Source: Escherichia coli (GTDB lineage: Bacteria > Pseudomonadota > Gammaproteobacteria > Enterobacterales > Enterobacteriaceae). Taken from it: 64,000 nucleotides of DNA. The position numbers and the translations under genes were made by a program. Within the stretch, counting starts at the first letter, position 1; each line of letters starts with the position of its first letter. The notes under the pieces were generated by a model, which saw only the letters and a program-made list of their open reading frames with translations, ran no database searches and was not told where the DNA came from. The stretch is from the NCBI RefSeq assembly GCF_003334355.1, contig NZ_QOWP01000009.1; one strand, 5' to 3'. Positions 31,929 to 34,600 of the stretch are shown here, in pieces.

Positions 31929-34481
31929 TCAGAACAATTCCTGTGCCTCGCCATTATCGATAATGGTCGTTCCCACCTCGTGCACTGCCTGTTGTGTCGG
32001 CTGCGTACCTTCGATGAAATACTCTTCGCGGCTGTTGCCACCATTAGCTAACTGCCCGGTGCTGCGATCGATATTCACCGTCACAATACCCGGTGGCGGC
32101 GTCAGCGGCTGCTCCGGCACACCTTCAAGAACGGCTTTCATATAAGCGTCCCATGCAGGCTGGGCACTCTTGGCACCGCCTTCGTAACCTGAGATCTGAT
32201 CTTTAATCGCTCCGGAAGCCGTTGTATGACCGAGATTACGACGGTGATCATCAAAGCCAATCCAGACCGAGGTCACAACGCCCGGACCGTAACCCGAGAA
32301 CCACGCATCTTTCGAACTGTTAGTGGTCCCGGTTTTCCCGCCGATATCGCGACGCTGCAAATCACGACCTGCACGCCAGCCAGTACCCTGCCAGCCTGGC
32401 TCACCAAAGATATTGGTGTTCAAAGCACTCTTAATCAGGAATGCCAGCGGAGTGTTGATGACGTGCGGTGCGTACTCCTGCGCGCCAGTCTTCGCCACTA
32501 ACGCCTGATTTGCCTGCTCCAGCTGCGGCATTGGTACAGAAACATTCTGCTGCTCGCGGGAGATAGCGACATCTTCAACATCGTTATTTTCCAGCACGTT
32601 CGATTTCTGCGTATCACCGTAAATCACCGGAATATCGCATTCCGGGCAGGCTACTTTCGGTTTCGCTTCGAAAATCACGCCGCCCTGATCGTTTTCAATT
32701 TTGCTGATAAACCACGGGTCCACCAGGAAGCCGCCGTTCGCCATGACCGCGTAGCCGCGCGCCACCTGCATTGGGGTGAAGGACGCTGAACCCAGCGCCA
32801 GCGATTCGGTGTGGACAATGTTTTGTGCCGGGAAGCCGAAGCGTTGCAGATATTCTGCAGCGTAGTCGACGCCCATCGCCCGCATTGCGCGTACCATCAC
32901 CACGTTTTTCGACTGACCCAGCCCCTGACGTAAGCGAATTGGACCGGCATATTGTGGCGGCGAGTTCTTCGGCTGCCAGTCAGAACCGGCACCTGCATCC
33001 CAGCGGGAAATTGGCACATCGTTCAACATACTTGCCAGCGTCAGACCTTTATCCATCGCCGCGGTGTAGAGGAACGGTTTGATGTTGGAACCCACCTGAC
33101 GCAGTGCCTGGGTGGCGCGGTTAAACTTGCTCTGATTGAAATCAAAGCCACCGACCAGCGCCATAACGGCACCATTTTGCGGATTGATCGACACCAGCGC
33201 CGAGTTCACTTCCGGCACTTGTGCCAGCCACCATGCATCGCCGACCTGACGAACCCAGATTTGCTGTCCCGTTTGCAGAACATCGGTCACTTTACGCGGC
33301 GTCGGTCCCTGCTGAGTATCCGAACGGTAAGGACGCGCCCAGCGAACGCCGTCCATACTCAATGCGACAGTCGACCCGTCCGCCAGCATTGCCGTCGCTT
33401 CCTGAGGATTGGCGCTGGTGACTGCGGCAGGCAGCAGCGGACCATAGGTCGGCAGCGCCTTCAGCGTATCGGTAATCTTGTTGTTATCCCACGCCGACTC
33501 GCCCACTTTCCACAGCACATTTGCCGGGCCGCGATAGCCGTGGCGCATGTCGTAGTCCAGCACGTTATTACGTACCGCCTGCTGCGCGGCCTGCTGCACT
33601 TTGCGGGTGATGGTGGTGTAAATGCGATAACCGTCTTCATAGGCACTTTCGCCATAACGGTTATACATCTCCTGGCGCACCATTTCGCTCAGGTACGGCG
33701 CAGAGAAAGCAATCTCCGGCGCGTGATAGTTAGCGTTAATCGCCTCAGTGCGTGTCTGATCGAACTGTTGTTGGGTGATATACCCTTCATCCAGCATCCG
33801 CGACAGCACGACGTTACGCCGCGCGACGGCACGATCCATCGAGTAGAGCGGGTTGAAGGTGGAAGGCGCTTTCGGCAGCCCGGCTATCACCGCCATTTCG
33901 TTCAGCGTCAGTTGGTCGACCGTTTTTCCGAAATAGACTTGTGCCGCAGCACCGACACCATAGGCGCGGTAACCAAGGTAAATCTTGTTCAGATAAAGCT
34001 CGAGGATCTCGTCTTTCGTCAGCAGCTGTTCAATGCGAATCGCGAGGAAGACTTCCTTAATCTTACGCATCAGCGTGCGTTCTGGACTGAGGAAGAAGTT
34101 TCTCGCCAGCTGCTGGGTAATGGTACTTGCCCCTTGTGACGCGTGACCGGAGAACAGCGCCACGCTTGCTGCACGGAAGATCCCCACCGGGTCAACGCCG
34201 TGATGCTCGTAGAAGCGGCTGTCTTCTGTCGCGATAAAGGCTTTCACCATCTCCGGTGGGATTTGATCCAACGTAACCGGAATACGACGTTTCTCACCGT
34301 ATTGAGCAATCAGCTCGCCATCGGCGCTGTAAATCTGCATCGGAATTTGCAGGCGAACATCTTTTAATGTCGCCACATCCGGCAGTTGTGGCTCGATGTA
34401 GCGGTATAGGCCATAAATCGAGCCTGCTCCCAGCAGAATGCAACAGACTGCAAGGATCAAAAAATACTTTACGAACTTCAC
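31929..34481 (-). CDS. mrcA: Penicillin-binding protein 1A (bifunctional transglycosylase/transpeptidase)
   Basis: Glycosyltransferase motif 'EDSRFYEHHGVD', transpeptidase 'KTGT'. The 850-aa form as I recall it starts at the GTG at 34479-34481; an in-frame ATG lies 8 codons upstream at 34505. Confidence 0.93.
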   Translation of the reverse strand: MKFVKYFLILAVCCILLGAGSIYGLYRYIEPQLPDVATLKDVRLQIPMQIYSADGELIAQYGEKRRIPVTLDQIPPEMVKAFIATEDSRFYEHHGVDPVGIFRAASVALFSGHASQGASTITQQLARNFFLSPERTLMRKIKEVFLAIRIEQLLTKDEILELYLNKIYLGYRAYGVGAAAQVYFGKTVDQLTLNEMAVIAGLPKAPSTFNPLYSMDRAVARRNVVLSRMLDEGYITQQQFDQTRTEAINANYHAPEIAFSAPYLSEMVRQEMYNRYGESAYEDGYRIYTTITRKVQQAAQQAVRNNVLDYDMRHGYRGPANVLWKVGESAWDNNKITDTLKALPTYGPLLPAAVTSANPQEATAMLADGSTVALSMDGVRWARPYRSDTQQGPTPRKVTDVLQTGQQIWVRQVGDAWWLAQVPEVNSALVSINPQNGAVMALVGGFDFNQSKFNRATQALRQVGSNIKPFLYTAAMDKGLTLASMLNDVPISRWDAGAGSDWQPKNSPPQYAGPIRLRQGLGQSKNVVMVRAMRAMGVDYAAEYLQRFGFPAQNIVHTESLALGSASFTPMQVARGYAVMANGGFLVDPWFISKIENDQGGVIFEAKPKVACPECDIPVIYGDTQKSNVLENNDVEDVAISREQQNVSVPMPQLEQANQALVAKTGAQEYAPHVINTPLAFLIKSALNTNIFGEPGWQGTGWRAGRDLQRRDIGGKTGTTNSSKDAWFSGYGPGVVTSVWIGFDDHRRNLGHTTASGAIKDQISGYEGGAKSAQPAWDAYMKAVLEGVPEQPLTPPPGIVTVNIDRSTGQLANGGNSREEYFIEGTQPTQQAVHEVGTTIIDNGEAQELF

Positions 34482-34600
34482 TGGAAATTTCCCATTTAGT
34501 TTCATTTGGGCAGTTTATAAACAAACGCGCGGTAGTATAAAGGCAAGCCAGACGCATTGATATACCCGTCAGAGTGACGGGTGATAAGGAGATCATCACA

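Follow-up and report, generated by a model that had tools for sequence, protein, structure and literature searches.

The gene mrcA (ponA) of Escherichia coli, encoding penicillin-binding protein 1a (PBP1a), very probably has its functional start at a GTG codon, and an in-frame ATG eight codons upstream is then an unselected codon of the leader. Our view of which codon the ribosomes actually choose draws on sequence, annotation and conservation, and on these grounds we hold GTG to be their start with good confidence. The gene lies on the minus strand in the 31929-34505 region of the window, which is the whole stretch of 64,000 nucleotides analyzed here, and its head reads ...CCCAA ATG AAA CTA AAT GGG AAA TTT CCA GTG AAG TTC GTA AAG... 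on that strand. The upstream codon (ATG1, 34505-34503) and the GTG (34481-34479) are in the same frame, 24 nt or 8 codons apart, as the first-pass annotation had claimed, and its coordinates are exact when the sequence is read on the minus strand. The open reading frame is 858 aa long from ATG1 (31929..34505) vs. 850 aa from the GTG. That the latter gives the 850-aa PBP1a agrees with both the reading frame and RefSeq, and translation bears out the claim that initiation at ATG1 would add MKLNGKFP to the N-terminus of the short form. The frame is open over 11 codons on the 5′ side of the GTG, where it is closed by a TAA (34517-34515). The elements concerned are as follows.

34479..34481, minus strand: GTG start codon of the 850-aa PBP1a (RefSeq CDS start in three records; present in 81/81 sequences and at the equivalent position of distant orthologs; position 1 of NF008643)
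34503..34505, minus strand: ATG1, in frame, 8 codons 5′ of the GTG (read from the sequence; codon variable in relatives; without Shine-Dalgarno element)
34482..34502, minus strand: the seven codons KLNGKFP between the candidate starts, leader with the ribosome-binding region (30 peptide variants in 81 sequences)
34515..34517, minus strand: in-frame TAA closing the mrcA frame upstream (GAA in the 10 species that have TAGAAA)
31929..34481, minus strand: mrcA CDS from the GTG, 850 codons and stop (open reading frame, RefSeq annotation, NF008643 profile match)

K-12 MG1655 has the identical sequence here, with ATG1 at 3522847 and the GTG at 3522871, and 5425 of 5427 E. coli records are at least 99% identical to the window across 261 nt at the mrcA start. 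How surprising is an in-frame ATG in such a place? At the base composition of this locus, a random run of 11 codons has a 14.8% chance of containing one and a 39% chance of containing any of ATG, GTG and TTG. The arrangement, though real, is statistically nothing out of the ordinary. In the mechanism that we propose, a weak GGGA located 8 nt upstream would position the 30S subunit at the GTG in an AU-rich leader that appears to have no exceptional structure, and GUG initiation would produce a PBP1a of 850 aa whose cytoplasmic tail, MKFVKY, has six residues and is followed by the membrane anchor. ATG1 would be in frame by happenstance in the 5′ leader, not under selection, and would yield at most a minor and functionally irrelevant 858-aa form.

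Annotation of the PBP1a N-terminus

RefSeq/PGAP places the mrcA CDS start at the GTG in K-12 MG1655 (b3396; NP_417855.4, 3522871..3525423) and in two other E. coli genomes. At least 1000 contigs carry exactly the 850-aa protein of the window, which RefSeq lists as MrcA, and 28 carry exactly the 858-aa form, both being in NCBI; of the 120 closest protein clusters, the majority are 850 aa long and roughly twelve are 858 aa long. The window protein matches the NCBIfam MrcA equivalog NF008643 over its full length (1884.6 bits, cut-off 1263, positions 1-850 of 850). Position 1 of this model is residue 9 of the 858-aa form, namely the GTG-encoded Met, so that the model covers residues 9-858 and leaves residues 1-8 unmatched. 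Glycosyltransferase (PF00912), OB-like (PF17092) and transpeptidase (PF00905) domains are recorded for P0012, the representative of the cluster to which the window protein belongs. Directly after MKFVKY, the translation shows a hydrophobic stretch, FLILAVCCILLGAGSIYGLY, a putative membrane anchor; in the search of solved structures, no full-length E. coli PBP1a was found, and related entries are devoid of the N-terminal anchor. The window gene is the same gene as E. coli mrcA/ponA (PBP1a, UniProt P02918, b3396) in its 850-aa form, and its start region is identical to that of K-12. Older or alternative annotations of the locus give the 858-aa reading, and the start ambiguity is already known to annotators, who settled it for the GTG. 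In UniProt, AAA58193 is flagged as erroneously extended at its N-terminus. The PBP1a of the window strain probably carries a few substitutions relative to the K-12 protein. The mrcA case has the same features as the mis-annotated extensions that arise from “longest ORF” gene calling, namely an open leader with an upstream in-frame start that is called by some pipelines only; we see no difference between them and place mrcA in this category.

Could ATG1 nevertheless be the true main start, with PBP1a being an 858-aa protein and the 850-aa annotation wrong? As a start codon, AUG is inherently stronger than GUG, ATG1 is the first ATG of the reading frame, and it was used in older and alternative annotations. 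Against this stand the beginning of the MrcA family model at residue 9, the lack of a Shine-Dalgarno element at ATG1, the distant orthologs that begin at the codon equivalent to the GTG, and 36 of 81 relatives that have no ATG there in front of an otherwise identical PBP1a N-terminus. We therefore regard this possibility as extremely improbable. As to topology, the eight extra residues would leave it unchanged, since two more cytoplasmic lysines still fit the positive-inside rule.

Conservation of the two candidate starts among relatives

The comparison set comprised 81 sequences, namely the window and the same locus from 80 species of Enterobacteriaceae and neighboring families (Escherichia to Erwinia, Chimaeribacter). 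The GTG start is invariant in all of them (81/81). At the position of ATG1, eight codons upstream, the codon is ATG in 45 sequences, GTG in 7, TTG in 5 and a non-start codon in 24 (TGG in 10, TTC in 3, ATT in 3, and ATA, ATC, ACG, AGA, TTA, GTC, GCG and TCG in one each), and the genera with a non-start codon include Klebsiella, Raoultella, Buttiauxella, Cedecea, Leclercia, Pseudescherichia and Erwinia. Conservation of the upstream ATG in related species had been proposed as a check at the first reading; the check, once run, found ATG in only 45/81, at a local minimum of conservation. Indeed, the leader is at least 90% identical per column while ATG1 and the next two codons form this minimum, and base 34505 has the second highest entropy (1.26 bit) in the interval from -50 to +11, after 34525 (1.40 bit). 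Across the 81 sequences, 30 different versions of the would-be extension peptide occur, all three codon positions being subject to change, and in one Erwinia sequence (L031) an in-frame TAA lies between the positions of ATG1 and the GTG. As far as the alignment tells, this pattern of variation is unlike that of a selected peptide.

The same picture emerges outside this set. Three distant orthologs, obtained by a representative search together with their contigs, have 59, 54, and 52% identity and begin with GTG (VKLLKY), GTG (VKFIKP) and ATG (MKIVKI), respectively, at the homologous M/V-K-x-x-K position; no upstream in-frame start is common to the three, and no conserved extension was found among them. 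For one distant ortholog (P0136), 23 spurious residues were placed in front of the GTG by the gene caller, the same kind of annotation problem as in mrcA. It is to be noted that the invariance of the GTG is partly confounded, since constraint extends to every synonymous site in codons 1-21, and that the non-conservation of the extension shows it to be dispensable rather than never made in E. coli.

This last point leads to the possibility of dual initiation, in which the lineages bearing the ATG (Escherichia, Salmonella, Citrobacter and others) would make PBP1a mainly as an 850-aa protein and to a minor extent as an 858-aa one, the two cytoplasmic tails differing by 8 residues. A start-capable ATG, GTG or TTG is present at -8 in 57/81 sequences, 80/81 have no in-frame stop between this position and the GTG, ATG1 lies within the probable transcript in an A-rich region as accessible as that of the GTG, and the 858-aa form is called by some pipelines. 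However, ATG1 has no Shine-Dalgarno element and is freely lost in 24/81 species, so that no selected function can be ascribed to it, and PBP1a runs as a single band, unlike PBP1b. In addition, upstream in-frame starts are rare in initiation profiling of E. coli: in strain BW25113, genome-wide Ribo-RET detected only six of them (bioRxiv 10.1101/520783). Dual initiation thus seems rather unlikely to us, and a minor 858-aa product, if made, would have no conserved role.

A useful comparison is provided by genes with two functional in-frame starts, such as mrcB (PBP1b alpha/gamma), which like mrcA encodes a class A PBP and has two candidate starts in one frame, the products differing only in cytoplasmic tail length, and infB (IF2-alpha/beta). 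In the case of PBP1b and of IF2, the two isoforms are detected at the protein level, and a separate ribosome-binding site serves the internal start. Unlike these cases, the second candidate of mrcA, ATG1, has no Shine-Dalgarno element and is not conserved: a ribosome-binding determinant is found at the GTG (-4.2 kcal/mol) and not at ATG1 (+1.5 kcal/mol), and conservation is 81/81 for the GTG vs. 45/81 for ATG1.

Ribosome binding and initiation signals

The candidate ribosome-binding element in front of the GTG is a short one.

34490..34493, minus strand: Shine-Dalgarno-like GGGA, weak, 8 nt 5′ of the GTG (duplex energy; conservation)

The duplex of this GGGA with the 3′ end of 16S rRNA has an energy of -4.2 kcal/mol, with a mean of -4.16 over 81 species, vs. 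+1.5 kcal/mol for ATG1. It is a weak element, since 22% of positions within the mrcA gene score as well. Bases 34494-34489 are essentially invariant in the 81 sequences, and the G-rich core is retained in the distant orthologs L084 (AGG) and L085 (AGGGAA). Accessibility of the mRNA turned out to be uninformative as a discriminator between starts: the computed cost of opening is 7.2-8.1 kcal/mol and similar at all three candidate starts, that is, the GTG, ATG1 and the out-of-frame ATG2 described below. Since this cost is alike for the three, biophysics alone would permit use of ATG1. Biophysics alone favors the GTG by a modest edge, and the case for the GTG rests mainly on conservation and curated annotation. 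A conserved RNA structure in the mrcA leader was considered and rejected (fold z-scores 0.17 and -0.38), and a small hairpin covering the GGGA in E. coli is not kept in other relatives. Taken with the annotation and the 81/81 invariance, the Shine-Dalgarno-like element at the GTG does not support the initial suggestion that the two starts are comparably plausible, ATG1 being a non-start codon in 24/81 sequences.

Can the matter be settled at the level of proteins or ribosome footprints? The lysine-rich N-terminus of a long PBP1a would give, on tryptic digestion, only MK, LNGK, FPVK and FVK before a very hydrophobic anchor peptide; the diagnostic peptides have 2-4 residues, and therefore trypsin-based N-terminal proteomics is nearly blind to the choice of start. 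A search of the supplements of Nakahigashi 2016, TRAINSPOTTER 2026, Fijalkowski 2024 and Stringer 2021 gave no entry with initiation-site or N-terminomic data for mrcA.

An out-of-frame mini-ORF overlapping the GTG

The leader contains a further ATG, which is not in the mrcA frame.

34478..34495, minus strand: ATG2 mini-ORF, out of frame, 5 codons (ATG GGA AAT TTC CAG TGA, encoding MGNFQ and stop), intact in 81/81, its TGA overlapping the GTG as GTGA

At 34495, which is 3522857 in MG1655, the start codon is ATG in 79 sequences and GTG in 2. An overlap of stop and start codons is the classical arrangement of translational coupling. Thus, termination of the mini-ORF followed by reinitiation might feed the weak GTG, and the conserved AATGGGAAAT would then be the start of an upstream ORF (uORF) rather than, or besides, a Shine-Dalgarno element. 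Such a mechanism is compatible with the GTG as the PBP1a start, and the start-capable ATG2 with a 5-codon frame ending in GTGA, intact in every sequence of the set, speaks for it. Several observations are nevertheless unfavorable. ATG2 has no Shine-Dalgarno element of its own. Codons 2-3 of the uORF are invariant at every position, which indicates a constraint at the nucleotide level and not a coding one, and the whole region is constrained anyway, so that conservation of the mini-ORF is inseparable from the general constraint. No coordinate in the small-ORF supplement of Stringer et al. matches the mini-ORF. The three distant orthologs keep only the G-rich core and lose ATG2, and this pattern, as judged from their sequences, favors the Shine-Dalgarno reading of the G-rich motif over the uORF reading. 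Compared with known coupling systems, in which AUGA or GUGA follows a short uORF, mrcA likewise has a TGA overlapping the GTG in 81 close relatives; unlike them, its putative mini-ORF has no ribosome-binding site and is absent in more distant orthologs. We consider coupling doubtful, and go on with direct initiation at the GTG, guided by the weak GGGA, as the preferred explanation.

Candidate promoter and leader of mrcA

Two promoter elements can be proposed for mrcA.

34534..34539, minus strand: TATACT, candidate -10, followed by the GC-rich discriminator ACCGCGCG (predicted transcription start site at about 34527)
34557..34562, minus strand: TATCAA, weak candidate -35, 17 nt 5′ of TATACT (in the conserved block)

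TATACT is at least 90% conserved in every column of the 81 sequences, with no substitution in the region listing. In the distant ortholog of 59% identity (L084), TATACT is found at the same distance of 52 nt from the GTG, and TATCCA lies 17 nt upstream of it, at the same spacing as TATCAA. TATACT is therefore the best candidate for the -10 element of mrcA as far as sequence comparison can indicate. In MG1655 the predicted transcription start would fall near 3522825. The predicted leader is about 46 nt long, and ATG1 is probably located 22 nt from the 5′ end of the transcript. The second candidate for the -10, TATAAA (34519-34514), lacks the final T, is TAGAAA in 10/81 species and would put the transcription start about 2 nt before ATG1. 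Use of this element, which would make ATG1 nearly leaderless, seems less likely than that of TATACT. A search of the data of Kim 2012 and Ettwiller 2016 gave nothing on an mrcA transcription start site, and a text search of the literature for the mrcA promoter, transcription start site, start codon and promoter names returned nothing relevant, most hits for “MRCA” being “most recent common ancestor”. A consensus promoter scan gave a single minus-strand site (34621-34592), which was discarded as its -10 is not conserved, and a hairpin at 34565-34581 was likewise dropped, having no consensus structure across 64 sequences.

A near-invariant block and the divergent hofM promoter

Apart from the question of the start codon, the alignment reveals extreme nucleotide conservation from -85 to +63 of the mrcA start.

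34418..34565, no strand assigned: near-invariant nucleotide block that takes in the promoter and leader of mrcA together with codons 1-21 and their synonymous sites (81-sequence alignment)

Within the coding part, identity at synonymous third positions is 0.925 over codons 2-21 vs. 0.665 over codons 22-330, and all other windows of 20 codons stay at or below 0.787. What can be the cause of such a block? A known RNA family was rejected, as the only match is a sub-threshold one to asponA (13.9 bits vs. a gathering score of 113). The z-scores of the leader given above (0.17 and -0.38) likewise eliminate RNA structure. An antisense ORF of 40 aa (34438-34560, plus strand) loses its start in 9 species, acquires stops in 5, and has substitutions that change residues; it was also rejected. 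The best lead is the divergent promoter of hofM (yrfD). Cameron and Redfield used as yrfD promoter an EMSA fragment with two CRP-S sites (PMC1635313), and this fragment maps to 34325-34450 of the window, wholly within mrcA. Thus, hofM transcripts induced by Sxy would run antisense across the mrcA start. One may go further and suppose that ATG1, producing a lineage-specific 858-aa proteoform with a longer and more basic tail, and/or ATG2, acting in reinitiation, are used, and that the block is a dual-use control region shared with the Sxy/CRP-S promoter of hofM. We regard this combination as improbable; if it were true, induction of competence genes would be linked to PBP1a synthesis.

Concluding remarks

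The start ambiguity itself is of very small importance, curated annotation having settled where mrcA begins. Still, it makes a worked example: the candidate start occupies some of the few free positions in a constrained leader, which gives a clean comparative argument against ATG1. We judge the side observations, namely the conserved block and the mini-ORF, to be more interesting than the ambiguity. Strongly suppressed synonymous change in the first 21 codons, a GUG start with a weak Shine-Dalgarno element, and a divergent competence promoter within the coding sequence come together around the beginning of mrcA, and this surrounding region may merit attention.

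Conserved sequences at the 5′ end of mrcA

When the window was compared with loci from 80 species of Enterobacteriaceae and neighbouring families (81 sequences), nucleotide conservation around the mrcA (ponA) start was found to be concentrated as follows.

34418-34565: near-invariant block across many genera, covering the predicted mrcA promoter, the leader and codons 1-21
34507-34550, minus strand: invariant core, TGGCTTGCCTTTATACTACCGCGCG.TTGTTTATAAACTGCCCA
34522-34513, minus strand: 10-bp palindrome GTTTATAAAC inside the core
34478-34495, minus strand: 5-codon mini-ORF (MGNFQ*), opened by an ATG out of the mrcA frame

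At synonymous third positions, identity is 0.925 over mrcA codons 2-21 compared with 0.665 over codons 22-330, and every other 20-codon window stays at 0.787 or less; on the far side of the block, the hofM coding sequence is much less conserved. The core also contains TATACT, a candidate −10 element, with a GC-rich discriminator, and an inverted pair, TTTATA-N16-TATAAA. The TGA stop of the mini-ORF overlaps the GTG start of mrcA as GTGA. A start-capable codon and an intact frame of this mini-ORF are kept in all 81 sequences of close relatives; it is missing from all three distant orthologs compared (59, 54 and 52% identity to E. coli PBP1a).

Start codons of mrcA and hofM

In L085, the ortholog with 54% identity, the gene caller added 23 residues (positions 1001-1069) upstream of a GTG (VKFIKP...) that is preceded by AGGGAATATCCG and aligns with the E. 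coli mrcA start. A GTG start here is thus widespread and has been mis-called repeatedly. The start ambiguity in the divergent gene hofM (yrfD) is of the same kind as in mrcA.

34574, plus strand: GTG, longest-ORF start of hofM (268 aa)
34601, plus strand: ATG, RefSeq start (259 aa)
34586-34591, plus strand: strong SD, AAGGAG, serving ATG 34601
34565-34581: perfect 7-bp inverted repeat, CCCGTCA-GAG-TGACGGG, immediately upstream of the SD

The SD is kept across the 64 sequences aligned. The Citrobacter repeat reads CCCGTT...AACGGG, an apparently compensatory change, and no consensus structure emerged over the 64 sequences.

Probable antisense transcription across the mrcA start

In Pseudomonas, where ponA is likewise divergent, from pilM instead of hofM, antisense transcription across the ponA 5′ end has been described, and asponA is an RNA antisense to ponA. 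The Rfam model of asponA (RF02812) gives only a weak match to the plus strand at 34300-34435 (13.9 bits, below the gathering score of 113), which probably reflects conserved coding sequence. The fragment published as the "yrfD (hofM) promoter" (Cameron and Redfield, 2006; PMC1635313) was used in EMSA and carries two Sxy-dependent CRP-S sites; it corresponds to 34325-34450, wholly within the mrcA coding region (codons ~11-53), and contains two weak matches.

34333-34354: candidate CRP-S site, TGCAT-N6-TTGCA
34414-34435: candidate CRP-S site

Transcription of hofM probably begins within mrcA, and its transcript would run antisense across the mrcA start.
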